Assembly: GCA_030704615.1 (NCBI GenBank)
Contig: CM060732.1
Coordinates: 31,806,001-31,870,000 of the forward strand
DNA: 64,000 bases
Reading direction: 5' to 3'
Source: Takakia lepidozioides
Lineage: Eukaryota; Plantae; Bryophyta
Numbering within the stretch: the first letter of the stretch is position 1; each line of letters begins with the position of its first letter. The notes under the pieces were generated by a model. The model was given only the letters and a program-made list of their open reading frames with translations, was not told the DNA's origin and ran no database searches. Made by a program: the position numbers and the translations under genes. Below, piece after piece: positions 16,277 to 64,000 of this stretch.

Positions 16277-16637
16277 ATGATGTTTGGTTTGTTTTGTCAC
16301 GTTGAGATGTCCCAAACCGCGAGACCCCATCCCTGGTGCTTGGTACCGTTGGAAGCCCTCGACGAGGAGGGGTGCACGGGCTTGGTCTCACGATTTTTGG
16401 ACCCACGGTGTGGGAGATGTGGAATTCCAAGTACTTTTGGTCGCTGGAAATTCACAAAAAATAGCAAAAATGGCAAAGTGGGCATTCTTGGGACAATGGT
16501 TGAAGCCTCGACGGGAGAGATATCAAGGGAAAGGTCTCCGGTTCAAATCTGGTCGTTGGCTCTCTAGAAAAACAATTGATTAGATAGGGGACATAGATGA
16601 CACTGGACACTTGGGCCAACGGCACAGGCTACCCTAG
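16277..16637 (+). mobile_element. non-autonomous Helitron copy (same family as the array at 50466-52000)
   Basis: Reverse complement of the array unit. Ends in hairpin cttgggccaacggcacagg, then ctaccCTAG followed by T. Confidence 0.7.
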
Positions 16638-28700: not shown

Positions 28701-29231
28701 TGGTGCTGGCTTTGGGGTCTTTGACCCTGCCACTGAGTCATAGGTTGTCCGGAGTCCCCTCCAGTTGTCCCGCACCGCTAACAAGTCCACGCTTTGCCAT
28801 TTGAAGTCGTCCTAACCTGCTGTCATTCCGATGCGACCAATTGTTTTGTTGCGATATTTCATCGCTGTACATTTCGCTTGCATCAATTGCCAAGCTCCTC
28901 GCCGTGTGTTCCTACTGGACTTGAAAGGCGGGAGGAAAGAGAGATCGTAATCTGAGACTGGAACAGTCGTCCTGTAATGTTTGAACATGATTACCTCGCC
29001 GTTTCTGGTACCGAATTGGCCGCCTAATCTGCTGTCGATGCAGCTTCCTACGGTCATCTTGACACCAGAGTTCTACTCCATGGTCATCGCAGACACTGTC
29101 TAATTTCATATGTGCTTTACCAACGATTTCCAGACAACTAACAAACTAACATGTTTTGGCAGTACAATGCCGAAACCGCTTGTCTTATGATCAAAACAAT
29201 CTGAAAAGAAAAGTGTACCAATATATGCATC

Positions 29232-32200: not shown

Positions 32201-33560
32201 ACTTTATATATGCAATTAGATGTGTGATGGTTAGGATGCATATAGTTAACTACAGTAGGTGAGTAGGATGACGAGGCCTAGAGCCAAATTTCTTTGTTGA
32301 TGTCGTTGGGTTTGGTTAACAGGTGGCCTAGTCTGTGTTTGAGACAGTCAATAGGTGGGTTAATTGCAGGGTTGAAGATGGCTTTGTGGGCCTTTTTAGG
32401 GTACTCGTTTAGGAGTTGGCCAAATGAAGCGACAAATTGTTTGTGGTTATCCGTGGCTTTTTGCTTTGTGATAGCATCCCAATCGAATTTGGAGAGGGAG
32501 GCGACCCACTGAAGAAGGTGGGATGGATCCACCGGTGGTGGCATAAGCGATTGGCATATAGGCAGCGTGTTTAGACATGTGATGCGGGGGTCAGTTTTCC
32601 AATTATTATACGATGGGGTCGAGGGGTTGGGGATGACAACAAGAGCCCGGCGTATGGTATGATAGATGTCTAGATGGGAGGTCCATTCGCGTTTTTGAGT
32701 TCGGGTAAGGTAACCTCCGTTTTATTTTGAACGGGCGGTCTGGGGGAGATCAGGGGGGGGCGGAGCATGTGGCTACTACACTTTTAGTCATTTCTTGGAT
32801 TGTAGAGGTGAGTGTAATTTCGGCTTCCATCCATGCAGCATTGGGGGATGCAAGTAGGTTAGTATCGGAGAGTATTAGGGAGATTTTGTGTATGAAGTTT
32901 GAGGAGGCGGGGTGGAAATGTTTTTTGAATGCTTTGATGTTGTGTTGGGGTATGGGTGAGAGTATACGGGGTTGAGGAGGCGGGGTGTGTATATCTCGAA
33001 TGGGTCGGAAGGGGATAAGGGATGGAGGTAGATAAGCGGATATTGGGTAATGGTCCGAGTTACATAAGCTGCTGATGTGTATGTGACTAAGAAGGTATGG
33101 TGGGATTTCATTGTTTAATTTGAGGTAGAAACCATCAATAAGGCTTAGGGAGGAGTAGTTGAGACCTCCCTGCCTGGAGTAGTGGTAGTCCGCATGAATG
33201 TATTTGAGTTGTAGAAGCTGTATGAATTTGGCCCATTCGTGGTCTGCTGATGATGGAGGTTGGTGGGTTCCGTTGTATGAGTGGCCTAGCATAGCAATGT
33301 CTTTGTTAAAGTCTCCTGCTAAAATAAAGTGGTGGTGTTGGTTATCTGGATGAGTGAGAGTGTGGGAGATAATGTTCCGTATGTCGGGTATGAGAGGGAG
33401 GTCGTCGATATGTGATGGCATATACAGATGTATAAGGGTGATTGGACATAATGCTGATGGGTGTAGATGGATGATTTGAAGGTGAGACCGGAGGAGGCGA
33501 GGGACGGTTATTTTTGTGGTGGTACAGGGCGAGTAATGTGTGAAGAGAATACCGAGTGCA
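29232..33560 (-). mobile_element. Dualen/RandI-like LINE body (APE, RT, chromodomain, MTase-like fold), frameshifted
   Basis: APE motifs FILAGDFN, SLIDGFY, SDHYPI (32750-33646). RT motifs KAPGPN, QEGFR, NFKNAFGS, GTIQGDTL, AYADDL, YTYLGI (30950-32110). Same C-rich composition as the RNase H and RLE pieces at 22.6-24.6 kb. Confidence 0.8.
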
Positions 33561-33569
33561 ACTCTCACA

Positions 33570-35600
33570 CCTAGTTGTGTGTTGCCCCACATCAGCAGCT
33601 CCAGCGTCTCTGAATGTGACTTGATGCCCCTCATCGATTGCCACATAATCCTTCAAGGTTGACTGGTGTCCTGCAGTAAGAGCCCCAAGCTGTTGGGAGT
33701 CCCACATCAACTGAGTCTCTCATAGTCCTGTAAAGTAATCTGCTGCTCCACTTCAGTAGCTCCAAGATTTATCAAATTGGTTTGATGGCCAACGTCAAAT
33801 GCCCGGGACTCCAATTTAATCTGGTTCCTTATGTGAGGGAAGAGATGAGGTTTGAGCAGATCCATCGACTCAGTCTGATGACTATTTGCAACGTTAATGT
33901 CTACATCTGCCGCTAGTTCGGTGGGCATCACATGATCACCCAAAGTGGTACTTGAACCTGAGTCATCACATACGAGCTCTTGAGATGCCTTCGATCTGTT
34001 TGTCTTTTGACTTCCGCGTCAAAGATGTGCATCTTTAGGTTCGTATTCTCACTCGACAAATTTTTTTCTTGTATCTTGTAAGTTTTTCCTTGTAAGCTTT
34101 TGGACTCTTGCTGCAAACTACCAGAGGCACTTGATAGGCACACCTTGATCTTTTTGTGGATCACTTTCTCAAGTGTAAGTGGCAAATCGCCAGCCCTGTG
34201 CAAGCAGCAATCCCATGGGTTTGAGCTCCTGAGTAGCTGGGATTGCTGAGGTAAGTCGTGATGGAAGAGCTCATGAACAGTTCGCTCTTTGCTGTCATAT
34301 AGAAGGATTATAAGGGCGGGAGCATTCTCTTGTAGCATCTCATTGTTAACATCGTAGTGTTAAAATTTACCATGATAACGACAGCAGTTGAGTTGCTCGA
34401 TTCAGGACAGCCTCTGTCAGCTCTATTGCAGCTAAGCTCTTCAGCCGGTCTTGGAAAATATGCTCATGACATTCCCCAAAAATGCAATGGCAACGGATGG
34501 GAATTTTGGTTTGATTACCGAGTTCCAAAAGCCCATCACTAAAGTTAACTTGGTAGTTGATATGACCCTGTTGAGGCTCCGTCCAACCCCACTTGATTTC
34601 ATTCTCAAACATAAGCTGTGAGATTGCAAGGGGCCAGCCTTGAACGGGCAAGTGAAGCATTAGGTAGGGGCTAATAGATCTACAGATCCACAACGTAATT
34701 AAGTCATCCGTAGCCAGGCTTGGAGTGGAGTAGGAAAGCCCAAGCAGATGGGGCAGCTTTGCCCTACTGTTCATGATGGTGTATTCGAGATGGAACTTCC
34801 GCTGAGGGTCGATGACATGCATAATACATGAGAGGCTGCAAAGGGGGTTAATCATGGTGTTGAAAATGGAGCCTCTCATACCTGCAATGACTAAAACTAG
34901 CTGCAGGTCGGACAACGCTTGCTCGGGCAAGAGAGCAAGGCCAACATGATTGGTTTGGTTGTGGGAGTAGGCCGGCCAGTGGTTGCTATAGAATATGCGC
35001 AGCTCGTATGCACGACATGACTTCTTGCAGGGCAGCCAATCCCAACATGTATCGCCACTAAGAGCCTCTGTCCGTGCCTGCACACACCCAACCTGGGGCT
35101 CTACAAATCGTTCAAAATTCCAAAATCACCTTGGTGGCTTCTTCAGCAGACCAAGATCGTGGGAAGCCTTTCTTTCCTCCCTAGTCTCAAACAAGTTGTG
35201 GAGAAGAGAGCGTTTATGCTCCGCTTGGGAAGTGACAAGTCTTGTAAAGATTGCCTTGGTGCATTTAGTGCCATAATCACTATGGGAAACGGCTAGCAAA
35301 ACCATATCATGATAGAGATCGTATGCTGCATGTGAAAGTAAGAGACGTGCCGACTCAGACCGTCGTTCGCATAAGTCTTGAGGAAAAAAGCGTGAGTGCA
35401 TGTAGGTGCACCATTTTACCGCGCAAAATGTTTTTTGAGTGTTTTTGAGGCAATGAGAGCCGATTTGTACACAGACAGCGACTAAACATGACCATTTGTA
35501 TCGGAAACGGTGAAACATCGACATGGCTACTGGTATGGCCCACAAATGGAAGAGGTCTGCGACGTCCATGAAGCCAAAGCGCTCATGAGTTTATGTGATT
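33570..35600 (-). pseudogene. disrupted coding-like region of unknown family
   Basis: Chain of overlapping minus-strand ORFs (35126-35569, 34367-35083, 33928-34338, 33707-33943, 33342-33710) downstream of a ctgcag acceptor near 35610. No motif recognised. Confidence 0.35.
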
Positions 35601-41699: not shown

Positions 41700-44600
41700 G
41701 GCGGGGTGCTTGACGTGTTTCCAGTTCACGTCTCTCTCAAATTCCGGCGAGGCCGTGGAGTGGAGCTCTGAGGTCTCTCCAGCGCTGAGGGGGGAGAGCA
41801 TTCCAAAATCTTCATTGCTAGGGAACCCTGTCCAGAAATTTCTAGTTTCTGAATACCTAGTTGTACATGCTCGTCGCTTTGACAAATGATGCCATGGCAG
41901 GCCCACGTCGCTCTGATCGTGGCATGGATTGCTGGCGCCTGCCTGGGGGTCCTGTGACAATCTGCAACACATTTTGTCCAAGCTTTTTTCGACTCCGTTA
42001 AAAGGTCTTTGTACACCATCGCCAACAAAGCGGAGGTACTGATTGTCTCCTTGCTAAAGGTCGTTTTACATCTAGCACGCCATAAGTGCCATAACGTAGA
42101 TGCGCGAAGAGTCTCAAAGACCGGACATGGATCAAAGGATCGGGCCCTGGCTGTTTTGTTGTAATTAAGTAGCAGATCCAGAGGGTCAATGGCTGAGAGG
42201 CTCCAATGTCTGTAGAAGACCTTGATCAAGGGCCAGATTTTGGCTGGAGCTGTACAGGCAAGAAGGCAGTGCTCATGAGTTTCAATGATACCCGAGGAGC
42301 AGCATCCACATAGTAAAGCTTCATGGAATTGCGACCATTCTCCCACTTTTAGGGCTCTGTTCGCTACTTGCCATAAAAACGCCAAGATCTTGGCAGGCCT
42401 AATTTTTAGCCAGATAGAAGACCAGATTGCTGGCCAGTTCTCATTCAAGAATCCAAAGTGACTCCATTTGCTATTCCACTTAGTGGAGAGGGATGGCTGG
42501 ATGTTAAGAGCCCTATATGCCTTCTTGGGGGTGTACGTAAGAAGGGGTGTTGCAGTGCGGCCAAAGGCCCATTCCCATTCTTTGGGGTCCAGCTGGAGGT
42601 CCGCTAGAGGTCTTCCCAGGATCCACACAAATATGGAGGCATTAACCCAGGACATGACATGTACGGTAAGAGGCGGTTGGGGATCAAACTCTTTGAACTT
42701 AGATGACCAATTTCATATTCTCACCGGGGTGTGATTGAATCGAGGGAAGAGGGTTTGGGATTGAGAAACCAAGATCAGAACTAGAGTTTTGGGGTTGATA
42801 TGGTAAGCGAACCCTGAGAAGTGGGTGTCTGTGGCAAAAATCACCAATAGGATGGTGAGTCTGTTGCTTATGACTCCCAATGTCCAGAAGTTCGTGGAGG
42901 GGGTCATTGGTCCCGCCTGCAGAGACACGGTCCAGGTTTGAGGTATAGAATTTATGACCGTCTGAAGCCTGGCCTTGGGTCTGATTGACCCCAGTATAGG
43001 GCTCATTGTGTCAATATGCAGGAAGCCTGCAGGCAATCACAGGTGTTTTAGTTGACTGATGCCCCTGCTGTCCCAGGCAGACCACTTTTTTGCCAGCGAT
43101 TTTTCAGTTGGTGTGGGCACGTTGGTGTTCAAAAATAGGTGCTGGCGGAGGGTTTCCTCGTAAGTTTCTGGCTCTTTTTTGCGGAGAAATGGTCTCAGTG
43201 CAGCCCAAGCTTTCCAGATGACGTTCCATAGGGACGATCCCACCATTTTGTGCTTGAATCCTTGTGTGATCCAGCGAATGGAGGGGTGCCATTTAGAGGT
43301 CTTAAGGGGGCTTTCCATCATCAGATTTCCTACCACCAAAAACTTCCACCAGCCTCCTTCTGGGCCTAAGAATCTTGGCAGCCACTTCCCACTTTGAGGA
43401 GGGCTGTGATTTGGATCTCCGGGTCCAGAACCCCCAGTCCTCCTAGTTTTTTTGGCTGGCAGATCTGTCTCCAGGAGACCTGTGGCTTGACCATTTGGCC
43501 TGCTTTGTTAGCTCCCCATACAAAATTTTGCAATAAAGCTTTGTATTCACATATTTGCCTTTTGGAAGGGCGCCAGGATGCTGCGTAGAACCATAGGCTA
43601 GCTGAAAGAATCTGGTTGGCCACAAGTGCCGACCTGTGATTGAGAGGAACTTAGAGCCCCAAAAAGTGAGGTTTCTTTTGATCTTGGATAGAATGGGTGC
43701 AAATCATTGCTCATCAGTGATATCAAGCCCATAGGTGTACCCTAGCAACGTTGTTGTTTGGCTAGGTTGCAACCATGAGAGGCCCAAGGCCTGGCCCCAA
43801 GAGGGCACACATCCCAGAAGGGATTTTGATGTGTCTCCAACGAGGATGGCACAAGTTTTGTTCCAGTTGACCTTGAAACCAGAGGCTTCACAGAAGGCCT
43901 CCAAAGTTGTTGTCCAGGTTGGTTTGGCTTGCTTGAAGCATAAGGAAAGTGTCCTCTACATACATGGATTCCCTGATGTAGGCAGGCTGGTTAGTTATGT
44001 AGTTAGTGATTCTAAGACCCAAAATCTGCCTGTCTGCTTGTAGCATGTATCCAAGCGTGTCGGCGGCAATAATGAAGAGGAAAGGAGCCAGGGGGCAGCC
44101 TTGACGGTCAGATCGATACAGGTTGAATGGCTTTGACACTGAACCGTTGATGATTACCCTGCTGGTTGACCCATTCAACAAAATGCGCACCCATTGACAA
44201 AAGGAGGGAGGCAAACCAATCTTGGCCAAGGTGCCCATCAGGAAAGGCTATTCTACTCTGTCAAACGCTTTCTAGTCTAGAAGGATAGGGCAATGGCCTG
44301 TTGGGTTTGAAGGGCATACTGGGGAAGCTCTTGTGCAAGAAGAATGTTATCCATGATGTATCTCCCCTTAATAAAGCCCGATTGGCTAGGTCTGATGATT
44401 GAAGGAAGAAGAGGCTGAAGACGTAGAGCCAAGCTTTTGGTTATAATCTTATATGCAACATTGAGGAGAGTTATGACACCTGCTGACAGCTTAAGCTTAA
44501 TTCTACTCTTGTAGGTCTTGGAAGAATTGCAGATTTTGTTTTGCTTCCAGGTAGGTTTCGTAAGTTTCTTGATCACAGCGAGGAGATTCCATTCTTCTCT

Positions 44601-45450
44601 GACAGACTGACAGGCACTTGATGAGTGCCCTTACCCTCTTTTTTCTAGTGGCTGCAATTTCTCTACTCATCTGCTAACTGGCTGCCCCCACTGCTTTGAG
44701 CTTGGCCATGAACTTATCTGATGGGTTTTGGGAGACAGTCCCAGCATGAGACCAGCTGTCCGCAAGCCTTGTGTGAACTCTGGGATCTGTAGCAGAGAGG
44801 CATTCATTTTGTAAAGACCCTTGCCCCTTGGGCGAGTGTTTGGAATATCCAATGAAGCCTCGATGACGGCGTGATCAAAGCCGGGGTGGATGGGCTGTTG
44901 GGCAGCCTCGGCCCTCCGGGACCATTGGATACAGTCCAAGGAGGCGTAGAATCTGTCCAATCTAGCCATCTGGAGATCCACGAGAGCTCTGTTGTTTGAC
45001 CAAGTGAAGACTGGGCCAAAAGGGGGCATAGGCCCCCAGTTTGCCACTTCTATTTCCACCAAATTGTGGTTGAGGGTGAGGGAGTGCCAGTGTTGTGTCT
45101 CTACCACGTCTGGGTTAAATTGTCCAATCCCCTGCCTGTTAGTAGGAGACTCAACCATATTGAAGTCCCCTGCCAACACCCAGAAATCTATGTCCTGTTT
45201 CAGTTCCATATTGGTATTTATGGATTCCCAGAGCTGCGCCCTCTCTACTGGCGAGTTTGGAGCATAAATATTAATTAACCCCAGCCGGCCTCCTTTGGCT
45301 GGAAGGTCTATGGCACAGTACTGAACTCTGCCTGGAACCCATGAGCCTTCCGAGACTATATATTGAAAGAGGGATGGGGAAACCAAGATGGCGGTGCCTC
45401 CTCTGGAACCTTTGGAAGCAACTAGGGTCAAATTGCTGACATCAAATTGA
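41700..45450 (-). mobile_element. L1/Tx1-type LINE ORF2, 5'-truncated and frameshifted
   Basis: APE (INIYAPN, LAGDFNMV, ARLDRFY, FDHAVI; 44667-45578). RT (ITLLNVAYKI, QSGFIKGR, RQGCPLAP). zf-RVT-like C-terminus (CGCC...ETHEHCLLAC, LWHLWRARC; 41726-42655). Confidence 0.9.
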
Positions 45451-46113
45451 TGCTTGTATGAAGATATTTCTAGGGGAATTTGGAAAGCCCGAACCAATTG
45501 CTTATACCAAGGTAAGTCCAGTGAGCCTAAGATAGTCTCTGTTCCCTCTTGTTCCCACAAGGCTAAGACAAACAACAACTCATTAGTACATCTTCTTCAG
45601 TGCCAAGGGTGTACATTTTTTCCTGTAGTTCGTGTGTCCATGGATGGGTAGATGGTCAACTGGAAGCTGCAAAATCAGTGGCACAATTGATAAAATCAGA
45701 CACTGCTAATCAAGGTACCTTGTTCAACACATTTCACCCTATTTTTCGGCCCCAAATTTTCATGTTGAATTCTGCAAGTTAGTTGGTTGAGTGGATCTTT
45801 GATAGATTGGAGTGACTTTGACATGATACTGCCAATGTGACAACTGGAAAGTATCCAGAAACAGTAACAGAGACGAGGAAAAGCTGTGGGATGAATACTC
45901 TTCTGACCCCAGTAAGTGATGGGACAACCGAGGCAAAAAGGTGAATGCCTGTCAGATTACAAAGAGTAGCAGATGCAATTGCCCATAGGAATTAGTGTGA
46001 TTAGTTGAGCTGGGTGCAATTGCACTCTCCCTTTCCTCTCTACTTCTGTTTGCTGTTCAAAGGTAGTATCCCTGCCCTGAGTTTACATTAAATCAGTCTG
46101 GTGAGCAACTGTT

Positions 46114-46416
46114 GTGCGAAGGGTGAAGCCCAACCACATCACGTTTGTTTGTGTTTGCAATGCGTGTGCAAGGCTGGGAGCTCTGGAAAAGGGGAAAGAG
46201 GTCCATGGTGACATCGTCAAAGCTGGATTTGTACCAGATGTCATTTTGAACCCTGCCCTGGTGGACATATATGCCAAATGTGGGTGCATTGAGGATGCCA
46301 AGGGAGTGACGTTCAACACTATGGCTGAACGAGAAGTGGTGTCATGGAACGCAATGCTTGTAGGGTGTGTAGAGCAAGAGCGCGGGATGGGGCTTTGGAG
46401 ACCTGAAAGAAAATGA
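46114..46416 (+). pseudogene. PLS-class pentatricopeptide repeat fragment
   Basis: KPNHITFVCVCNACARLGALEKGKEVH...ALVDIYAKCGCIEDA...EREVVSWNAML: about one set of L, S and partial P motifs, then the frame is lost. Confidence 0.8.
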
Positions 46417-47589
46417 TGGGGGAAGGGGTGAAGGTCGACGATGAGCAAGACAGGAATGAGCAAATCAAAGTGGCAGTAGGATGGACGACAGCTTGGGTGG
46501 TTGTGACAATGCAGTTGGGCAGTCTCGCGCCTAAAGAGTCACAGTACTTGTAACCAACAGTGAGCGTCTACAGAGTGCTAGATCCCTTCATTTATATATA
46601 TGCCATGGTGTTTTGAAATGTGGGAAGTTGGATGTAGTCTGATGGGAGGACTAAAATTGGTTCGCTTGAAAGTCTAGGCAAGTCACTGGATCAATTCACG
46701 GAACACCAACATGAACTTGGGCTTTGTCACGCCTGTTCTCATTTCAGGTTGATCGAAGCTTGCGGCGAATGGAGCCATCAGTCGTGGCATCATTTCCATG
46801 CATAAAGTACAACCATTCAGTCTTTGCTTCGAATGAAGACGCACAATAAACATCACGACCTCCGTTGTTCCTCTTTCTCTCATCCCTCCTCCATAGCTAT
46901 GTGATATTAGAATAGCGTTCATGTAATCCCTGGTGGTTATATTGGGAGCCAATGCCCCTTATGGGAAACATTTTCTCCGATCAGCCAGCAGTTGTGTTTG
47001 TTGTGCTGCTAAGTACTTAAGTTCTCAAATGTACAGGGTAACTCGGGGTTTCCTTATTGATAAAAGCTTTGTGATACTTGAGAGAATCTGTGTAAATGCC
47101 ATAAGAATGGGCAGTCAGACAGTTTGGGGCAGGAGAAGTGAGCTCTCATCCAACAATACTGACATTTGCTGGTGTTAGCTGCAGTTCAGTAAAGAATTTC
47201 ATGCTACTGTTCCCAACCTGCAATTTTCCATTTTGCACACATCGAGTTTGTGTAATGGTGCTTAGACATACTCTTAGCAATGTTAGTTTGTTTCACATAT
47301 GTCAATGTTGTTGTTGCTATATTGCCTGAAAGCTTGCTCATGTATCTTCTGTCGTTTTCATGCTGGATGGCAGTTGAAGGTGGGTGACCAAGTCTGGCCA
47401 GTGTATGCATCTTCTGCTCAGGCATTTGGAAGTCTACTTAAACTTTGCAGCTTTGTGCATTTTTGTAGCAGCACCGGATTAGATTATGGAACGGATCTCT
47501 GAACATTAAGTCACGTTGTATTTGAATCGATGTTCCAATTTCAAATGTGCTTTCATGTTTCAATGGTGTTTTTGTATGCTTTCAATGGT

Positions 47590-50110: not shown

Positions 50111-50465
50111 GTTAATACCATGCACAACTAGGTAGTAGGATTTGAACCCGATATCACCAGGATGGCACTCACAGGTCTGCTACTACAGGTAATTTTTAGA
50201 AAAAACGAAAAGAAAACTAGAAGAGTAGCCGAACACACATCTCCCAAATCCCATATGGATTTTGAGCAGAGGCAACATGGCTATAGAGGAGATGGTTCTG
50301 GGTTCAAATCCACATTCGTATTTTTGTCACACAGATGAAATTAGACTATGGCGCCCATGTGGTTGATTAATACTGGATCTACAATTGATTGATTATAGAA
50401 TGCAACCACCAATCAGGAAGGGTAGAAATAAATGCGCGCTTGAGGACAAGTAACATAACACCATA

Positions 50466-52000
50466 CTAGGGTAGCCTCTGCCCTTGGCCCAAGTATGCAG
50501 TGTCATCTAAGTCCAAGTGCAATCTTAAGTGTCCAATGTCATCTAAGTCTAATCATTTTTTTTCCACAAAGCCTACGACCAGATTTGAACCGGAGACCTT
50601 TTCCTTGATATATCTCATGTCAGAGGCTCAACCATTGTCCCAAGGAGAGCCCACTTTGCTCGTACCCGAATTTCCAGCGACCCAAAGTACTTGAAATTCC
50701 ACATCTCCCACACCGCAAGTCCAAAAATCATGAGACCAAGTCGGTGCACCCCTCCTCATCGAGGGCTTTCCAACCGTATCAAGCACTGAGGGTGGGCCCC
50801 GCAGGTTGGGACATCTCAAATCTACAAAACAAAACAAAACAAAACAAAACAAACGTCTCGATTCATATTTTGACTAGGGTAGCCTATGCTGTTGGCCCAA
50901 GTGTCAAGTGTAATCTAAGCCCTGCAAGTGCATCTCCTATGTCGAGGCCCAAGTGCGACCTCTAGGGTAGCCTCTGCCATTGGCCCAAGGGTCCAATGTC
51001 ATCTACGTCCAAATGCATTTTTTTTCCACAGAGCCTATGACCAAATTTGAACCGGAGACCTTTCCCTTGCTATCTCTCATGTCGAGGCTCCAACCATTGT
51101 CCCAGGAATTCCCACTTCGCTATTTTTCGCGAATTTCAGCGACCAAAAGTACTTGAAATTCCACATCTCCCACACCGCAGGTCCAAAAATCATGAGACCA
51201 AGCCCATGCACCCCTCCTCGTCGAGGGCTTTCCAATGGTACCAAGCACCAGGGCTGGGGCCTCGCGGTTGGGGACATCTCAAATCTACAAAACAAAACAA
51301 AACAAACGTCTCGCTTCATATATTGACTAGGGTAGCCTGTGCCGTTGGCCCAAGTGTCAAATGTCATCTAAGTCCAAATCCAATTTTTTTTCCACAGAGC
51401 CTACGACGAGATTTGAACCGGAGACCTTTCCCTTGATATCCCTCATTTCGAGGCTCCAACCATTGTCCCAGGAATTCCCACTTTGCTATTTTTCGCGAAT
51501 ATCCAGCGACCCAAAATACTTGTAATTCCACATCTCCCACACTGCAAGTCCAAAAATCATGAGACCAAGCCAGTGCACCCCTCCTCCGGCTTTCCAATGG
51601 TACCAAGCACCAGGGCTGGGGCCTCGCGGTTGGGGACATCTCAAACCTACAAAACAAAACATAACATAACAAAGCAAACGTCTCGATTCATATATTGACT
51701 AGGGTAGCCTATGCCGTTGGCTCAAGTGTCCAATGTCATCTAAGTCATCTCAGTCTAATCATTTTAAACAAAACCTACGACCTGATTTGAACCGGAGACC
51801 TTTTCCTTGATATCTCTCATGTCGAGGCTCCGATCATTGTCCCAAGAAAGCCCACTTTGCTATTTTTTGTGAATTTCTAGAGACCAAAACTACTTGAAAT
51901 CCAACATCGCCCACACCGCAGGTCCAAAAATCACAGTCGGTGCAGCCAGGGCTTTCCAACGGTACCAAGCACTCAGGGTGGGGCCCGCAGCTTGGGACAT
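50466..52000 (-). mobile_element. head-to-tail tandem array of a ~365-410 bp non-autonomous Helitron
   Basis: Units 50466-50873, 50874-50961 (partial), 50962-51326, 51327-51698 and 51699-52000 (truncated). On minus, full units start TCAA(T/A)ATATGAA and end in a hairpin plus CTAG. Most junctions read CTAG|TC. Confidence 0.75.
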
Positions 52001-52397
52001 ATTTTTTAATTTTAATTTTAATTTTATTTATTTTTAATTTTTAATTTTTAAGGAAAGGGACAAAAGCCCTGTTCATCAAATTAAATAAGAAGGAGTTACA
52101 CAGGGGTGGAAAAAATAACCACCGGGGGGGGGGGGGGTGCGTGAGGCTTACTGAGAGGGAACTTCCCCGGAACCAAAGCAAACATGCTAAGGGAAAGGAG
52201 CAAGGAAACCCAAAGAGATGACTTTGAGAAGGATGGGTCGAGAGAGTGGTGTGGGGGGCCGAGAGAGATGTGGTAGGGATGGGGGGGATTAGAAGCAGGA
52301 TTCACTGAAGAGAAGTAGACAATGTCAGGAAAAAGCAATGAGCTAAGTCTTGAAAAAGACTTGAAACCAGAAGGGGATGCCTGGGGACGATGGAAGT
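52001..52397 (-). mobile_element. LINE 3' end with (TAAAA/TAAAAA)n tail, interrupted by the Gypsy element
   Basis: (tttaa)n tail at 52001-52050. Motif aaaggga-N-agccctg is shared with the LINE 3' end at 14587-14605. Confidence 0.55.
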
Positions 52398-52585
52398 TGT
52401 CGTGCGCATACATATCGCTACACAACTACATCGCTGTCCAAAACCACACAACACATGTGCACGCCACACACTAGTATATCACTAGTCCACCACTAGTCCA
52501 GCCACTAGTCCAACCACTAGGCTACAACTAGTCAGTCACTAGGCTGCCACTATGCTGCCCACTATGGCAGTCACTAGTCCACACA
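52398..52585 (-). repeat. LTR copy A (188 bp)
   Basis: TG...CA ends. 186/188 identical to 52917-53104. Confidence 0.9.
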
Positions 52586-52916
52586 ATAGATAAAGAAGAA
52601 GAATACAAGCACAAGCTCATGCGAGCTCACAAAGCTGAAGCATAAACTCATGCATATATAACCTCATCACTCAAATACAAGTCAAGCCAAGTGCACCCCA
52701 CGCGATGGGGAATCCACACTACGGCGCCATAGCTAGGCGCGGTGAGGCTCAACTCGAGAAAGATGAGCCTCCCGCGCTTGCTGTGAAGATAACCACTCCA
52801 AGGCCTAAATCTGCCTTGACCCCTGGATTGACACTTGGGCCAATCCCAAATGTCAATATGTAAAAGCTAGCTATTTCCTAGCTAGTTTCACACTAGTGGT
52901 ACAATAACTTGACAGC

Positions 52917-53104
52917 TGTCGTGCGCATACATATTGCTACACAACTACATCGCTGTCCAAAACCACACAACACATGTGCATGCCACACACTAGTATATCA
53001 CTAGTCCACCACTAGTCCAGCCACTAGTCCAACCACTAGGCTACAACTAGTCAGTCACTAGGCTGCCACTATGCTGCCCACTATGGCAGTCACTAGTCCA
53101 CACA
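52917..53104 (-). repeat. LTR copy B (188 bp), 3' LTR of the full element
   Basis: Directly follows the polypurine tract (cgcccccctagct on +, 53107-53119). TG...CA ends, internal cactag repeats. Confidence 0.9.
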
Positions 53105-53364
53105 ATCGCCCCCCTAGCTGGTGCTTAGGTCCCTCTAAGTCCAGGTAGCCACAAGATGTGATAGTGACCATAGCCTCACTAAGTCCTCCACCACTATCCC
53201 TACTACACTCAAACTCGATAGATCAAGAGGCCGGGTGCAAGAGTTGCCCCATCGTTAGTCGCCGTCTTACAACCTGTGAACTTGAGCTTGGGATCTCATG
53301 TATTGACTCCTATGAGCTTGGCCTCCCATGTCTTGTTAGCTGCCTCCAGTCATGTCCACTGCCA

Positions 53365-53592
53365 CTATCCCAAGCAGTGTGGACACAACCAATCTCCGTT
53401 AGGAACCTTCTCAAGAGGTGGTGTCAAGCATCCCATATGCCAACCCCTTGAGCATCGATCACACACCAGCATGGTGGCTGCCCCTTTGGCAGACCTACAG
53501 AGCATGCACCTCAAACCTGCAGGTACCACTGCCAAGTTTGGGTCAACTCTGCCATCGACATTGGGAAGGTGACATGGCGCACAATTACGCAC
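53365..53592 (-). pseudogene. PHD finger at the C-terminus of Gypsy pol
   Basis: CMLC...MLVCDRCSRGWHMGCLTPPLEKVPNGDWLCPHC: C4HC3 PHD consensus. Confidence 0.9.
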
Positions 53593-53601
53593 ATGGTTCT
53601 T

Positions 53602-54700
53602 CTAAGTCATGCCATCCCGACCCTCCAAGATCAGGACCCCTGAGGGCAACACCTCTCGAACCCTCAAAATAACACGCCCTACAGTAACATCTAGAGTCGT
53701 AGGAGCAGTCTGCTGCAAATAAACATAGTCACCAGGGCTAAACCTCCGAACCCCAGGACGATATCCTCCACCACATATAGTGGCATACCTCAACGTATCA
53801 CGGTGCTGTGCAATGGCAAGGTTCTCAAAAGCCATGGGCATGACTTTCTTGAACAACTCTGCACGCTGATCACATGCACGTACCCACACGTCCGGATCGT
53901 CAAGGTTAAGGACTTGAGCAGTGTCCCTACGAATGGCTGCAGGCAAATCCGGCTCTCGGCCAAAGAGAAGGAAATATGGTGAAGGAGGCAAGTGATGCTT
54001 GTTTGCTGAACTTGTAGCCCATGGCTAACCAAGGAACCTGAAGATCCCAATCTCATAGGTGTCCCTTCTGCAAGCCATACTTGTGCAAACCCCTCTTCAC
54101 CGTCTGAACAACTCTCTCTGCTAAGCCATCGGCCTCAAGATGATCCCGAGAAGTGGTGCGGTGGTCTATCAAGGCTTTATCACACAAAGTCTGAAACTCC
54201 CCCAAGAACTCTCTCCCTTGGTCCGTGAGTACCTCAGCTGGAGCACCAAATCGCACTGCTGCCTCCTCCATCCGGGAGCTAAGTACACGATCTAAGAATG
54301 CATACGCAGCCCCCTCACTAGCCTTGTCAGGCAATGGAACCAACTCAATCCACTTGGAGAAGTGCTCCACCATCACCAACACATATCTGTGGTGGCGCAT
54401 AGTCAATGGCAACGGTCCTGCGAAGTCAAGACTCCACTTGTAGCCCAATCCCATGATTGGTAAAAGATGCAACTGTGGTGTAGGGGTGTTGAATGAAGCA
54501 CGCACCCTGTCACACACCATGCACCTAGCCACGAACTGTTGTATCTCTGTATGCATACCACGCCACCAATATTACCCTTGCGGTAAACTTTGAGTGCGTC
54601 GCACTCCAAAATGCCCCAACTCCTCATGGGCATGCCGCACTAACCGTGCACGCTGTGTGGGGTGAGGCACAATCCTCACCCGACCATCCTCCCACACTCG
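53602..54700 (-). pseudogene. Gypsy integrase
   Basis: H2C2 zinc motif, DDE core (WSLDFAGP, VLTDQGREF, DGLAERVVQ) and SPYFLLFGREP. Split by frameshifts. Confidence 0.9.
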
Positions 54701-55081: not shown

Positions 55082-56361
55082 CTAAAAGTCATACTCCTGG
55101 AGTATGAGTGCCCACCGTGCAAGCTTCCCCGTAAGCTTGTCTGACTCCATCAACCACTTGAGTGGCTGGTGATCCGTGACAAGGGTGAAAATATTGCCGT
55201 ATAGATAGCACCTGAAGTGTGCCACGGCCCACACTGCAGCTAAGTACTCTCCCTCATATGAGCTGTACTTAGTCTTTGCAGCGTTGTTCGAGCGGCTAGC
55301 ATAAGCCACTACGAACTCTCTTCCCTCATCATCCACCTGTGTGAGCACCGCTCCAAGCCCCAGCATGCTCCAATCCGTATGCAGCTGAAAGGGACGCCCC
55401 CTAATAGGTCGTCTTAGGATAGGCGCCGAGGTCAACCTCGCCTTGAGCTCTTGAAAAGCTCGTTCCTACTCATCTTCCCACTGCCACTCCTGGTCCACCT
55501 TGGTCAGCTTGGTTAGAGCCTTTGCAATGGTACTAAATCCCTTGACAAACCGTCTATAATAGTTTGCCAACCCCATGAAAGCTCGAACTCGGCTCACATC
55601 CGTGGGGCGTGGAATTTGTACAATGGCCTCTACCTTAGTTTGCTGTACCCCCAATCCTCCAGGATATATCATGTGACCCAGATACTCAATCTGGTTGTGG
55701 AAAAACTTGCACTTCCCCGGATGCAACTTCAATCCGTGCGCTCTCAAGCGCTCCAATACCACCTGAAGGTGTCTCTCATGCTCCTCCATCGTAACACTAA
55801 AGATGATGATGTCATCTATGTAGCACCGAACAAAGTCCACCCCTGCTAGAATCCTATCCATGACTCTCTGAAACTCTGCAGGAGCATTCTTAAGCCAAAT
55901 GGTAAGAACCGCCACTGATATAGGCAATCCTTGCCGTGCTCATTGATCCCCCAGAATGCCGTCTTCTGCTTGTCCGCCTCCTTGATTGGCAACTGGTGAT
56001 ATCCGGATCGTAAATCCAAAGTGCTAAAGACCTTAGCATGCCCGATGGCATCAAAGATCTCCTCTGGTGTTGGCATGGCATACTTATCGGACTTGGTCTG
56101 ACGATTTACAGGCCGGTAATCACCGCACATACGTCTCTCCGTCCAATTGCCATAGACATCCTTCTTGGCTGGCATCACTGTGGCTGAAGCATACTCTCCA
56201 CCAGAGAGCTCCACCAAACCTGCCTCCCAGAGATCTTGAGTCCTCATCTGAATCAAAGACCTCTTCATGTCACTATATCTATAGGGTCTCCGAAATATTG
56301 GCGTGTCAGTGGCCAACTCAATACGGATCTCTTGACCCTTCAGTGCTCCCAAGTCTTTCAA
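55082..56361 (-). pseudogene. Gypsy reverse transcriptase and RNase H
   Basis: RMCGDYRPVN, LDLRSGYHQ, LPFGL|KNAPAEFQR, CYIDDIII, EYLGH; LHTDWSMLGLGAVL, YSSYEGE, VTDHQPL. Confidence 0.95.
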
Positions 56362-56809
56362 ACTGAAGGCAAAACAATTCCTGTAAGCCCTCAGGAACCG
56401 CCGTATACGTCGTCTCTCTCCTCCGGTGACAATGGGTCCAATGTCAGGCTCCCAATTGTCCTCCGTAACTACAACCTTAAGTCAGTGGGCTTAGAGGTAG
56501 AGGACGCGTCTAGTGGTTGCTATGTTGCAACCTCTTGAGCAGTACTCCCTACCTGCTCAGTTAGTGACAAGGCCTCATCCTGCCCCATCATCTCATCCTC
56601 AAGGACCTCCTCCAAGAAAAATCCCCAACCTCATCTTTCATCGCCACCTTGGCTGCCAACTCTCTCTGAACCTCGAGCACCTCCCACGTGTGCCATGGAT
56701 GCCTGCACCCCACTCACATGCTCGCCCCCACTCACTGCCTGTACCGTCTTGGTAGGCAGAGAGACCATTGAGGGAAGTGTACTCTGCACTCTTCGTTGCT
56801 CAGCCATAG

Positions 56810-57765
56810 CCAAGCTGATAATCCAGGTCAAGCAATTGAGATCCATTACTTGCCCCAACACTTGACGACGTGATGCCTCAGAAAGAGACGACACACCGTG
56901 GTACCAGTGGTAAAACCCATTGCCCGCTCACGCTCGTCAGCATTAGGCTCCACTAACTGCTGCAACTGAGCATCCCACAGGAGGCCAGGTCCACTATCCC
57001 CGAAAGCATGCGATTCTGGGAAGCTGAGCAGTGTAGGTAATGCTGCTCGTGGTTGACCACCTTGTTGACCACTGCCAAAGGCGAACGGTCATCGTGTCTC
57101 ACACGCTGAGACTGCCTCCCTGTGTCCAGAATGCTATCCACTGTGAGATATGCTGGCCGCTGCACCCCATCAAATGCACACTTGAGCAGTGCGGGTGGCA
57201 TCAAGTTAGTCCACCATAGCCGTGGACGATGAGCCTGACCCCACTGTAGCTGCATCTAGCAACACTGCTGACCCAAGCCACGACCGACTTGATGCACACT
57301 GGCCATCACCCTGGCCCGAGAATCGCCCATCAGTGGCACATTCTCCAAGATGTATGCTGGAGATACAGCTTGATGAAGCTGCAAGTGGCGCAAAACCCGC
57401 ACCATCTCCCAAAACAGACCCGACCTCGAGTCTCGCAATCCATTGCCATGCCCGGCTGATGAATGCCCTTGGCAGGGCCAACCTGCCACTACCAGATCAA
57501 TGGAGCCAACCCGCTCCAAATCCTGCGCCCCCAGCAACGAAATGTCTGCTGGCAAGGCCTGCTGATATCCACGAATTGCAGACACCGACAACAATCAGGG
57601 TACGCTGCACCAACTGAGCAACATGGCGAAGTGAAACGCGTCGTGCAGTCTCATCCCTCTCCACATACAGGTAACGCCGAACTCGTACACTGCCTGTAAT
57701 ACAGCAGCCAATCCGGTGCTGATCCCGCCAAACAAGTCCAGAAGACAAATGCCTTCATCCGGATA
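56810..57765 (-). pseudogene. DNMT3-like C5-cytosine DNA methyltransferase domain within pol
   Basis: Motif I LDLFGGISTG (57712-57741), II VRRYLYVE, IV DLVVAGWPCQG (PC at 57472-57477), VI ILENV (ENV at 57337-57345), VIII AHRPRLWWTNL, IX ERERAMGF, X RRQVLGQVMDL. Correct order, across several frameshifts. Confidence 0.9.
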
Positions 57766-58149
57766 CTACCACACAATAGGTGTGTGGTGTCCAATGGAGA
57801 CAACTGAGGTGGTCCTGGTGCAATCCCGCACTCTCCTCCTCTCCTGACGGTACAAAAGCCTCCACCCAGGCTTGTTGCACCCGTCGATCAGCATCCCGCT
57901 GCAAATCCTTGCTCGTGCCCCACAATGGAGTCTGAGCAACCATGGTAGGCAACTCCGCCATACCATACATGTCATCCTGCTCTCCCGGAGGTGGCACATC
58001 CTCTGAATGAGCGTTGCCCTCAAGCAACTCTCTAGGCCAACTCACTGCCGCTGTGAATGCTGCTAGTGTCGGCATCTTGCCTTGCTGGGCAACCGCAACT
58101 CCCCTATGAATGTCACAGGGAGCTGCACACGCCGGCCCTCCCCTGACTG

Positions 58150-58560
58150 CCATGCAGGCCTATAGGAAGCTGACTCCTCCCAAAAATCCAGGGTGAAGCC
58201 CATGGGATACAACACTGCCCCACCAACCAGGACATCGTATGAGACCACGTCTGTCACAATGGCCTTGGCTCGCATCACTGAGCCATCTGTAGGGTGATCC
58301 GGCCGTAGTCTGATAGCCAACTCACGCCGTGTCATGCCCCGAGCCTGCTCCGATCCTCCAGAGACGTCTGTATCTGGAAAGGACAAGGCTCCATATCCGC
58401 CTCCGTGAGGCCCAAGCCTGCAATAGCAGCTCTGCCCAACATCAATGGCTGAGCTCCCGAGTCCAACAAGACCCGCAGTGGCCGGTACCTCTTGCCTGCC
58501 GGTCCACTCAAACTGCCATCCTGGTTGTCTAACATGACGACTCCAGGTGTCACCATGGCG
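58150..58560 (-). pseudogene. retropepsin aspartic protease
   Basis: RVLLDSGAQPLMLG and SYDVLVGGAVL. Confidence 0.85.
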
Positions 58561-59393: not shown

Positions 59394-60435
59394 TCAGGAT
59401 GCAAACCATAACACTGGCCTCTCCATGCCGTGCTTGCCACAATGCCCACACTGCAACTGTGCAGGCTGTGCATGTGCCGACCCTTTGCCTCCCTCTGGGC
59501 AATCCTTCTTGACATGCAATGAAAGGGAGAGCCCTGCACTGAGGTCCTCTCTGCCTTCCCTGAGCTTCACCTGAGCCCCCTTGTTGCCTTGAGCACGTTG
59601 AGGTAGTGGTTGGCTAGGAGCACCACTACCCCGTGGTGTCTCCTTAGCAAATCCCACCATGACCACTCGTTCCTCCACCATGTTGAGCTCTATCCGCTCT
59701 GCCAGCAAAAACACATTTGCTAAGGTGGGTTGGGCCGCTTGTAGGAGAGTTGCATCCCGCACCCTTCTCCTCAGCTCCTTGTCCAATATCCCATACCAGA
59801 ATTGGACTGCCTGAGCTTCCGTAACCCCTTGGGTTACATTTATCAAGCGCCTCATGCGAGTGAAAGCCTCCCTCAAGCTCTCGGTCGGCTTCCGTTGGAA
59901 CTCTTGCAAGCTCCGCAACTTCTCTGTCCTCACCCCTTGGTAGTTCCCTCTCAACTCTTCGAAGAACTCACAAACAGGGTTGAAGGCAGGCACGGGTAGT
60001 GCTGGTGCGGTAGTGGCTTGGGTGGACGTCGTAGCTACTGTACCACCAGTCCCACTAGTCCCACTGCTACTTGCTGAAGCTGCCGGTGCAGCGGCAGGTG
60101 TAGCCACTGCCCTCGTGGCTCTAGTGCCCCTAGTGATGGAGACATAGTCGGGTGACAGTACATCCTCCACTCCTCGATCTCAACCTCATGCCCCCGCCTG
60201 AACTCATGGTAATCATCATAGGCGGCCCCTCAAGGTGCTGAAACAGCCCCTTCCATGCCATGAAAGGCGTAAATAGTTGTGGATTGCGCATTTGCTGCAA
60301 ATCACACCAACTATCAAACTCTTGGATAAAATCATCCAAACTCGATGGTGCCCACCGCCCCAGAGTACCTTCGTGGCCCCTTGGTAGCTCCATACATCTC
60401 CTCCATTGTGTCCCACAACAATGGCAAGGAAACAA
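59394..60435 (-). pseudogene. gag
   Basis: LDDFIQEFDSWCD, LQEFQRKPTESLREAFTRMRRL (retrotransposon gag-like) and C-terminal zinc-knuckle remnants (HVKKDCP, CGHCGKHG). Confidence 0.8.
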
Positions 60436-61270: not shown

Positions 61271-62449
61271 TCCACAGCCATCACAGCCCTACACAGGTCA
61301 CAGGGTCACCGCCCCACAGGCCGCAGCCTGTCACAGCCCATCACAACCCCAAAGCCACAGGCACAGCCTGTCACAGCCCTACAAAGGTCACAGGGTCACA
61401 GCCCCAAAGGCCACAGCCTATCACAGCCCTTCACAGCCCCATAGGCCACAGGGCACAGCCTATCACAGCCCGTCACAGCCCGTCACAGCCCCACAGGCCA
61501 CAGGGCACAGCCTATCCCAGCCCGCCACAGCCCGTCACAGCCCGTCACAGCCCCACACAGGTCACAGGGGTCACAGCCCCAAAGGCCACAGTCTGTCACA
61601 GCCCGTCACAGCCCCACACAGGTCACAGGGGTCACAGCCCCGAAGGCCACAGCCCCTCACAGCCCGTCACAGCCCCACAGGCCACAGGGCACAGCCCGCC
61701 ACAGCCTGTCATAGCCCCCTCACAGCCCATCACAGCGTGTCACAGCCCGTCACAGCCCCACAGGCCACAGGGCACAGCCCACCACAGCCTGTCACAGCCC
61801 ATCACAGCCCCACAGGCCACAGGGCACAGCCTGTCACAGCCCGCATAACCATCACAACCCATCACAGCCTATCATAGCTCGCCACAGCCCGTCACAGCCC
61901 GTCACAGCCCCACAGGCCACAGGCCACAGCTTGTCACTGCCCCTTATAGCCCGTCACAGCCCCACAAGCCACAGGGCACAGCCTGTCACAGCCCCTCATA
62001 GCCCGTCACAGCCCCACAGGCCACTGGGCACAGCCTGTCACAGCCCGCCACAGCCATCACAGCCCATCATAGCCTGTCACACCTTGTCACATCCCGTCAC
62101 AGCCCCACAAATCACAGGGCACAGCCTGTCCACAGCCCCTCATAGCCCGTCACAGCCCCACAGGCCACAGGGCACAGCCTGTCAGCCCCTCATAGCCCGT
62201 CACAGCCCCACAGGCCACTGGGCACAGCCTGTCACAGCCCCTCACAGCCCCACAGGCCACAGGGCACAGCCTGTCACAGCCCCTCACAGCCCGTCACACA
62301 GCCCACACAGCCACATGGCATAGCCTGTCACAGCCCCTCACAGCCCATCACAATATGTCACAACCCGTCACAGCCCCACAGGCCACAGGGCACAGCCCAC
62401 CACAGCCTATCACAGCCCATCACAGCCTGTCACAGCCCCACAGGCCACT
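61271..62449. repeat. ~1.2 kb (cacagcc)-based minisatellite inside the Gypsy 5' region
   Basis: Dense degenerate repeats of cacagccc/gtcacagcc/cacagggcacagcc. Confidence 0.95.
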
Positions 62450-64000
62450 CATGACAGTTTAGCCATTTCTCCAAGGGGTTTAGCCACGCCAAACTAGGGT
62501 TTGTGTCTTTTGGACTCTAGGCTTATTTGCACCGAGCTATGGCGGTTGTGAAGAAATCAGCAAGGTATTCTTGCTCTTTCGGCTCCCACACACCACCAAT
62601 AGTAGCCCTAAGCCATGAGGAAGAGGTTGCCACAAACCAAGCCTTCTTTCTCACTTAGACTCCCCAAACACGCCACTAAACTCAATGGCAAACAACCAAG
62701 CCTTGCTAGTTTTCAGCCCTTGTGAGCACTCATTCAAGCATTTCCCTTGGCCATAACATCTGTCTTAGAGCCTATTCCAGCCCCCTACACCTGCCACTTC
62801 AAGAGCCATGCTCTATCTAGGCTTGAGGTTGAAACCCCAACTCAGAACACGCTCTACAAGTGTCGGACTGTCACATAAGAGCAGATCAGCCCCTTACCTT
62901 CACTTCTAGTTCTTTAAAGCTTGAAAACAAAAGCCCAATGGACTGAACGCATGCTCCACACATGCCCCACTCTCACCACCAGAGAATCAGCCCCTTTGCT
63001 TTCTTTCTTGCACCCACCAACCTGAAAATACACGCTTCAGCGGGCTGGAAGCATGCTCCACACATGCCCTACAGGGAAACCAGCTTCTTCCTTCCTTTCT
63101 TGCTTGCCCTCCAAGCTTGAAGATGGAAGCTTCAATGCTCCACACATGCTCCACACATGCAACCTCTTCACACAAGAGGTATCAGCCCCCTATCTTGGCT
63201 CCTTAGCTCCTTGATGCTCTCTAAGACAAGACTAAGCACTCCACAGCCTTTGCCAAGCTCCTGAAACCCTAAGGCTTACATTTCCAGCCACAAGACACTC
63301 CTCTTGTGGTGCAAGAGATCTTTTTCCAAGCTCTGAAACCCTAGGTGCACATTCCATGGCCTTGCCGCACCTTTTAGCTTCTGTTCCAATCCTGCTCTTG
63401 CCATGACAAGAGCCCTCTCAATGCTGAAGCTCGAGATTGAAACCCAATCTCAACATACTCCACAAAGTGCACTGATTTGCCCCAAGCCAAATCAGCCCTT
63501 TCGCTTGGTCTTGCAATCCTTCACACAATGAAAGCTCACATTCCCAAGTCCGGTTCTCAGCTTTGCCACCAAAGCCACTATAACCTGCTTTTGACTGGTC
63601 CTCTTCCCAATCATGCTTGCTCATGCATGTACACAATTTGAAACCATCAAGGTGCTCTGGAATTACCTGCAGCATGGTGCTTGAAGATCGAATGCCAAGG
63701 TCTACCACCTCGTAACCCACATCGCCTCCGCTTCTAACAACCAAGAGCTCCACGGTGCTCCTTGCATAACAACCTGGTTTCTCTCATTCTCAAGCAAAAA
63801 CCACAAGTGCTACAACTAACTCGTATCTGGCACTCACAGATACGAGCTCATCTTTCTCAAGTGATAAAGAAGAAGAATACAAGCACAAGCTCATGCGAGC
63901 TCACAAAGCTGAAGCATAAACTCATGCATATATAACCTCATCACTCAAATACAAGTCAAGCCAAGTGCACCCCACGCCATGGGGAATCCACACTATGGCG

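Follow-up and report, generated by a model that had tools for sequence, protein, structure and literature searches.

Among the closest described systems are the KnitGypsy-Dnmt3 elements of the alga Klebsormidium nitens (de Mendoza et al. 2018, PMC5890265). Like the element reported here, they are described with DIRS-like split repeats and a Gypsy pol that includes a DNMT3-like domain without rearrangement; the name "Gypsy-DNMT3" is reused in a 2026 preprint (bioRxiv 10.64898/2026.05.21.726589). According to the text of the former, the KnitGypsy DNMT was without activity in yeast, a result its authors call inconclusive, and the role proposed for pol-encoded DNMTs is methylation of cDNA (PMC5890265). 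Chromoviruses (MAGGY and others; Neumann et al. 2019, PMC6317226) resemble our element in carrying a histone reader after the integrase C-terminal domain, and in the texts consulted the steering of LTR retrotransposon integration by histone reading is reported only for chromodomains, with PHD fingers proposed. PHD fingers are described as widespread in retrotransposons (PMC6673714; PMC8557442; bioRxiv 2021.11.30.470311). Similar in domain content is Gypsy-7a_cRei of Chlamydomonas, a Gypsy polyprotein with a PHD finger, for which a targeting role has been proposed and intergenic insertion is reported at 2.6 times above chance, a bias that may be selection (bioRxiv 10.1101/2022.06.16.496473). 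A histone reader and a DNA methyltransferase are combined in one LTR element in the EpiLTRs (bioRxiv 10.64898/2026.05.21.726589), and a PHD-like finger and a DNMT3-type catalytic domain form one unit in the ADD-methyltransferase module of DNMT3A (PMC10393158).

We analysed a stretch of 64,000 nucleotides from Takakia lepidozioides (hereafter the window), in which an initial annotation had placed a PHD finger instead of a chromodomain after the integrase of a retroelement that also encodes a DNMT3-like enzyme, and had suggested that the element combines integration guided by the H3 tail with de novo DNA methylation.

A PHD finger closes pol in a decayed Gypsy element

The minus strand of the window holds a decayed Ty3/gypsy copy in the order gag-PR-DNMT3-like-RT-RH-IN-PHD (Table 1), with the RT-RH-IN arrangement and DDE integrase of Gypsy elements. 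Its DNMT domain is intronless, keeps an unrearranged motif order and has the catalytic PC, ENV and RxR motifs; a related DNMT domain finds its best solved matches in DNMT3A/3B (E 1e-9). No Pfam match was found in the aspartic protease region or in the integrase C-terminal region, and the latter we infer to be SH3-like from its position and fold.

Table 1. Parts of the retroelement, with their positions in the window and the basis of each assignment.
Feature	Position	Strand	Basis or remark
Split repeat B2, element 3' end	52395..52587	-	
Split repeat A2	52589..52913	-	138 nt 99% to A1
Split repeat B1	52914..53106	-	98% to B2
PPT-like G run AGGGGGG	53109..53115	-	2 nt before B1
C4HC3 PHD finger, last pol domain	53376..53508	-	Pfam PF00628, ligand positions, nearest solved PHDs
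Integrase C-terminal region (long helix, beta-rich putative SH3-like domain, xAPCHLP linker)	53509..53979	-	P0002 model
Integrase HHCC zinc domain and DDE core	53980..54667	-	Pfam PF17921, PF00665; tblastn with P0009, P0020
Reverse transcriptase and RNase H, frameshifted	55091..56232	-	Pfam PF00078, PF17917, PF17919; own profiles
Conserved stop and hexamer, TAG CAA CCA, between DNMT and RT	56514..56522	-	kept in 11 related loci
DNMT3-like C5 cytosine methyltransferase, frameshifted	56772..57777	-	Pfam PF00145, 44.2 bits
Aspartic protease (limits approximate)	58150..58480	-	LDSGA motif at 58466
Gag remnant (limits approximate)	59397..60400	-	weak PF03732, below cut-off; translation
Split repeat A1, element 5' end, clipped by window edge	63863..64000	-	

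Translation of 53592-53365 (minus strand) gives 75 residues and then a stop. The first 28 are the tail of the integrase C-terminal region and the last 47 the PHD finger proper, which is thus shorter than the span first annotated. These 47 residues cover the full PF00628 profile (1-47) at 45.9 bits, above the curated cut-off of 24, with the core Trp and all C4HC3 zinc ligands present (C 53508, 53499, 53463 and 53454; H 53439; C 53430, 53385 and 53376). Because the pol stop (53367-53365) comes two residues past the final Cys, the PHD is the end of pol, and the canonical finger described there initially is confirmed. A search of all six frames of the window finds the C4HC3 pattern at a single place, against none in 30 base-shuffled windows, which rules out a chance match.

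Between the pol stop and the terminal repeat, a Pfam scan of three frames with E up to 1 returned neither a chromodomain nor any other family. As a positive control, a chromodomain was recovered in the equivalent slot of an unrelated Gypsy locus, L046, 132 residues past its integrase core. The scan and its control rule out a hidden chromodomain in the window element and agree with the initial annotation that none precedes the PPT; its phrase "instead of a chromodomain" holds for position only, the PHD occupying the same slot after the integrase. A conserved xAPCHLP motif at 53586-53563 (minus strand) joins the integrase C-terminal domain to the PHD; it has the version CAPCH in 46 of 120 relatives, and this linker is a possible extra metal site.

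The window copy is dead. Its PHD is cut off from the integrase core by a frameshift near 53980 together with an in-frame stop in the integrase C-terminal region (53604-53602), and frameshifts also interrupt RT and DNMT. In the source organism the family is very abundant (60,677 contig records in run X1), and its other copies there are unlike the window copy at both breaks. A host gene fragment captured only by the window copy is ruled out by these copies and by the relatives described below.

The ends of the element are split direct repeats in the arrangement A1 ... B1 A2 B2, 98-99% alike, and not ordinary LTRs. The full pattern recurs in loci L003, L014, L024, L026 and L040, and five related loci have the same G run ahead of B1. 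In the window and in L003, L014, L024 and L040, the B|A junction reads CA-GC-TG, the elements start with TG and finish with CA, and target duplications of 4 bp match exactly or with one mismatch. From the arrangement of the repeats, the ends look like those of a two-LTR circle opened within one LTR.

Around the element, about four tandem 370-bp units (50465-51936) adjoin its 3' end, with an inverted dispersed copy of the unit near 16.4 kb (16283-16581), and an array of 10-nt and 52-nt CACAGCC-type repeats lies in its long 5' leader (61300-62460). The window also contains two decayed LINE-like elements with endonuclease, RT and zf-RVT (29100-35600 and 41700-46500, minus strand), the first with a weak PCIF1_WW match below cut-off (29109-29756), and an exon-like ORF with the GIL1/IRKI C-terminal domain of a plant gene (461-1006, minus strand). 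No tRNA gene was found in the window.

Relatives and the pairing of PHD with DNMT

Among the matches listed for an integrase C-terminal region query (120 of 128), 114 of the 120 relatives carry a PHD, and in 108 integrase and PHD share one ORF with a spacing of 134-171 residues, a proportion biased upward by the presence of the PHD in the query; none of the 120 has a PF00385 chromodomain. The place of the finger is fixed, about 148 residues past the integrase core. The PHD is thus in frame with the integrase in intact relatives, and the out-of-frame finger that would have refuted the initial reading is not what they show. The closest named relatives among the matches listed, from Marchantia, Calypogeia and Sphagnum, are 62-78% identical, and the whole set spans liverworts, a moss, Coleochaete and the chlorophyte Tetradesmus, with complete transcript-derived ORFs from Coleochaete scutata and Tetradesmus deserticola. 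The single K. nitens sequence compared, an integrase fragment (P0113), is 54% identical over 74% of the query. In viral contigs, 28 pattern matches yielded no confirmed relative.

A quick, midpoint-rooted tree with SH-aLRT support only was built from 56 rows with RT, RH and IN, excluding P0113 of K. nitens. A branch with an SH-aLRT of 100 has all 48 rows with a PHD on the same side, and L046, the only locus with a chromodomain, is placed outside the PHD-bearing group. We further examined an AlphaFold model of a relative's protein, P0002, rather than of the broken window protein. The model (pLDDT 79) shows a PHD with confidence, along with a beta-rich domain and the integrase core, and does not fix the placement of PHD against core (pTM 0.44); a helix is predicted at 214-254 and strands at 270-320. 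A fold search with this model returned integrases alone, including those of PFV and Ty3. One locus, L078:4006-6477, is a Gypsy-type element with its integrase ahead of RT.

We scored the pairing of the two domains in loci chosen by their RT motifs, 80 of which collapsed to 72, 41 of them scorable and 31 too short. Both PHD and DNMT are present in 35 of the 41, neither in 4, PHD only in 1 (L005, an internal deletion) and DNMT only in 1; most of the scored loci are copies of two subfamilies and not independent events. A DNMT profile search yielded 353 DNMT clusters at 50% identity with E < 1e-30. Among the best 150 proteins by that profile, 70 include an integrase; 49 of these have a PHD after it, 19 end too early and 2 (P0253 and P0281) have none despite room, which leaves a PHD in 49 of 51 scorable proteins. 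An insensitive word-index search with the DNMT region found 4 proteins, all with a PHD. Co-occurrence of PHD and DNMT across the family, which the initial annotation had raised, is borne out in the RT-selected loci and in the DNMT-selected proteins alike.

The PHD position is constant after the integrase while the DNMT occupies two positions: among proteins spanning RH-IN-PHD, 26 have it between RH and IN and 3 have it ahead of RT, and 20 start too near RT for it to be placed. Each domain has also been lost singly, the PHD in P0253 and P0281 and the DNMT in P0157, a 2191-residue gag-to-PHD polyprotein whose cluster-mate P0062 nests among DNMT-bearing elements in the tree.

Of the best 150 DNMT-selected proteins, 72 have G-x-E-C-Q as the DNMT catalytic motif and 44 have G-x-P-C-Q; a Glu ahead of the catalytic Cys is unusual among C5 methyltransferases. 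Many relatives with the DNMT between RH and IN have a tail of 300-450 residues past the PHD with SAM-methyltransferase motifs (for example, P0073, P0174 and P0189, with a weak PF02086 match in P0174), and Atlas look-alikes of the tail at 0.95-0.96 include MTS and N6_Mtase clusters. DNMT, IN, PHD and tail occur together in 29 of the best 150 DNMT-selected proteins, a set that amounts to an EpiLTR-like kit with a PHD, of which we found none in the text of the 2026 preprint. In P0158, of the P0157 cluster, residues 225-306 directly after the PHD resemble PTM/DIR17-like Tudor domains (Atlas 0.85); this Tudor-like domain is possibly a second reader, which we offer as a lead only.

The window's sub-lineage has a stop codon and then CAA CC at the DNMT-RT boundary: the stop is at 56522-56520 in the window, and 11 further loci (L001-L007, L011, L025, L033 and L043) have it as TAG in 8 cases and TAA in 3, in frame with RT in 9 of the 11. 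This is not the usual gag-pol junction, and other sub-lineages of the family have no stop there. Stop and CAA CC are invariant across 1071 records from run X1, and in four runs the nine bases of stop and hexamer have no variant reaching 3%, though adjacent bases vary. The readthrough motif UAG CAR YYA (PMC3542737) is matched by TAG CAA CCA in the window and missed by the last base in the moss loci, which have CAA CCC or CAA CCT; no RNA structure beyond chance was found after the stop (z -0.02). Conservation and motif together suggest that the stop and hexamer are likely a readthrough site. The conserved stop explains why many database proteins of the window's sub-lineage begin some 90 residues ahead of RT.

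What the finger would read and how the element would use it

The solved PHDs nearest to the window finger are those of CHD4, PHF12, KDM5B/5A (PHD1), PHF21A, BAZ2A/B and ATXR5. The PHDs of CHD4, PHF12, PHF21A and ATXR5 are readers of unmodified H3. BAZ2 PHDs are likewise reported to read unmodified H3, as is KDM5 PHD1 (PMC4225485). In KDM5B, residues L325, D328, P347, G349 and W351 contact H3 A1 and R2 (PMC4225485), and their equivalents, mapped by alignment, are kept in the window PHD. Across the 103 PHDs with the full pattern, the Asp for H3 R2 is kept in 90 and the Trp of the A1 pocket in 100. The position two residues ahead of the ligand His, where the cage Trp stands, is Gly in the window and Trp in none of the 103; a cage Trp occurs in 1 of 35 in the DNMT-selected set. 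Since PHDs that read H3K4me3 (ING/BPTF type) have this Trp (PMC5415848), its absence rules out an H3K4me3 reader. Judged by its nearest solved PHDs, the finger belongs to the unmodified-H3 class, and it has no H3K4me3 cage.

The window PHD has no acids at the positions of KDM5B D308 and E321 and of BAZ2A D1688/E1689, and its net charge is positive. Among relatives' PHDs, an acid precedes the first Cys in 64 of 103 and an acidic wall is present in 61 of 103; both features are missing from 18 of 103, namely the window finger and 17 others. Loss of acidic contacts is reported to weaken KDM5B binding (PMC4225485), and loss of the acid patch to have drastically weakened that of BAZ2A. From the contacts kept and missing, PHDs of the window's sub-lineage are predicted to bind the H3 N-terminus with weak discrimination of K4.

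Reading these results jointly, we think it likely that the PHD tethers the integrase to chromatin and that the DNMT acts separately. In active copies the integrase PHD would tether the integration complex to nucleosomes via the free H3 N-terminus, presumably binding A1 and R2 with weak K4 discrimination in the window's sub-lineage, and insertion may be biased away from H3K4me3 promoters. Readthrough of the stop would make Gag-PR-DNMT abundant and RT-RH-IN-PHD scarce, protease cleavage would probably leave the PHD attached to the integrase, and the DNMT3-like enzyme, as a separate product, would act on the element's own cDNA or fresh insertion. The PHD belongs to the integrase more than to the DNMT because the DNMT moves and is lost, the PHD never moves and a stop intervenes; and a DNMT made in excess with Gag and protease, if readthrough is real, fits a packaged enzyme acting on cDNA and not an ADD-like module. 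Precedents for the proposed roles are the intergenic bias of Gypsy-7a_cRei and the cDNA methylation suggested for pol-encoded DNMTs. Several points speak against this reading: the window PHD has no acidic H3 contacts, as in 18/103; the linkage of PHD and DNMT is strong (49/51; 35/41), which functional coupling would explain as well; the moss loci miss the readthrough motif by one base and other sub-lineages have no stop; the KnitGypsy DNMT was inactive in yeast; the Gypsy-7a_cRei bias may be selection; and the P0002 model leaves the PHD unplaced against the core. An analogy with the ADD was drawn initially; spelled out, it would have the PHD read unmethylated H3K4 and direct or activate the element's DNMT3 at the insertion site. 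Besides the tight co-occurrence, it draws on the unmodified-H3 class of the finger and on the algal RT-RH-DNMT-IN-PHD layout, which could keep both domains on one cleavage product. However, the ADD works intramolecularly (PMC10393158), whereas the window layout sets the two domains at opposite ends of pol, parted by about 1100 residues with RT, RH and IN between, and in the window's sub-lineage by a conserved stop. With the DNMT mobile, each domain lost singly (P0157; P0253 and P0281) and the acids that sense K4 and contact T3 absent from the window's sub-lineage, the analogy is not upheld, and guidance of the DNMT by the PHD in the manner of the ADD is unlikely.

The missing acidic contacts and positive net charge of the window's sub-lineage would also suit a finger that binds a partner other than H3 (a host chromatin factor, DNA or the integrase), or that sets the chromatin of the new copy after integration, with no bias in landing; selection after integration can mimic targeting (De Mendoza 2019). 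The window and most relatives nevertheless keep the A1 pocket and the R2 Asp (D 90/103, W 100/103), and we regard this explanation as unlikely. Very improbable is that the finger is a relic in the window's sub-lineage, folded but no longer needed: two H3-contact features have been lost and PHD-less relatives exist (2/51), but the eight ligands and core Trp are kept in a family as abundant here as run X1 indicates, and across the liverwort, moss and Coleochaete relatives.

The tether could be part of a wider, decidedly doubtful picture, in which an old, green-lineage-wide Gypsy clade would carry a self-made chromatin kit: IN-PHD would steer to H3K4-unmethylated chromatin, a co-packaged DNMT3 would methylate each new copy before or at landing, readthrough would set the writer-to-reader ratio in land plants, and in algal members the PHD would be followed by a Tudor-like reader and a methyltransferase of adenine type.

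Comparison with known systems

KnitGypsy-Dnmt3 is reported from one alga, whereas the relatives found here extend to Coleochaete, the chlorophyte Tetradesmus, a moss and liverworts, and within the family the DNMT has a second position and can be parted from RT by a stop. Neither the text of PMC5890265 nor three supplement files contain the term "PHD", though its Fig. 4c may show one. More broadly, no text found in the literature names a PHD in Gypsy-DNMT3 elements, which the figures of PMC5890265 or the bioRxiv supplements may show. Unlike chromoviruses, the window element has no chromodomain at the integrase C-terminus; it has a PHD, with the H3 N-terminus rather than methylated H3K9 as its predicted ligand, together with split repeats and a DNMT. 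Gypsy-7a_cRei, for which the description lists no DNMT, has ordinary LTRs, in contrast to the DNMT and split repeats of the window element. EpiLTRs are defined by DAM, DNMT and chromodomain together; their DNMT is related to DNMT4, the text of the preprint contains no PHD domain, and its authors set them apart from Gypsy-DNMT3. Both DAM and chromodomain are missing from the window element. In the DNMT3A module the finger adjoins the methyltransferase and regulates the catalytic domain within one protein, whereas here a canonical PHD of KDM5/BAZ/CHD4 type sits on the integrase, distant from the DNMT and beyond a stop.

The dead window copy adds little alone. The family is a large natural series, with PHD variants, single-domain losses, two layouts and hosts, like Marchantia, that have chromatin maps, and it makes testable both the targeting of integration by a PHD and the purpose of a retrotransposon's own DNMT3. 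Going by the texts consulted, Gypsy-DNMT3, Gypsy elements with a PHD and LTR elements that join reader and writer have each been published singly already; the pairing of PHD with DNMT3 is apparently unreported but unsurprising, in an element of known kind, and it is the usual condition across a large family of green-plant elements, which has been partly described before.
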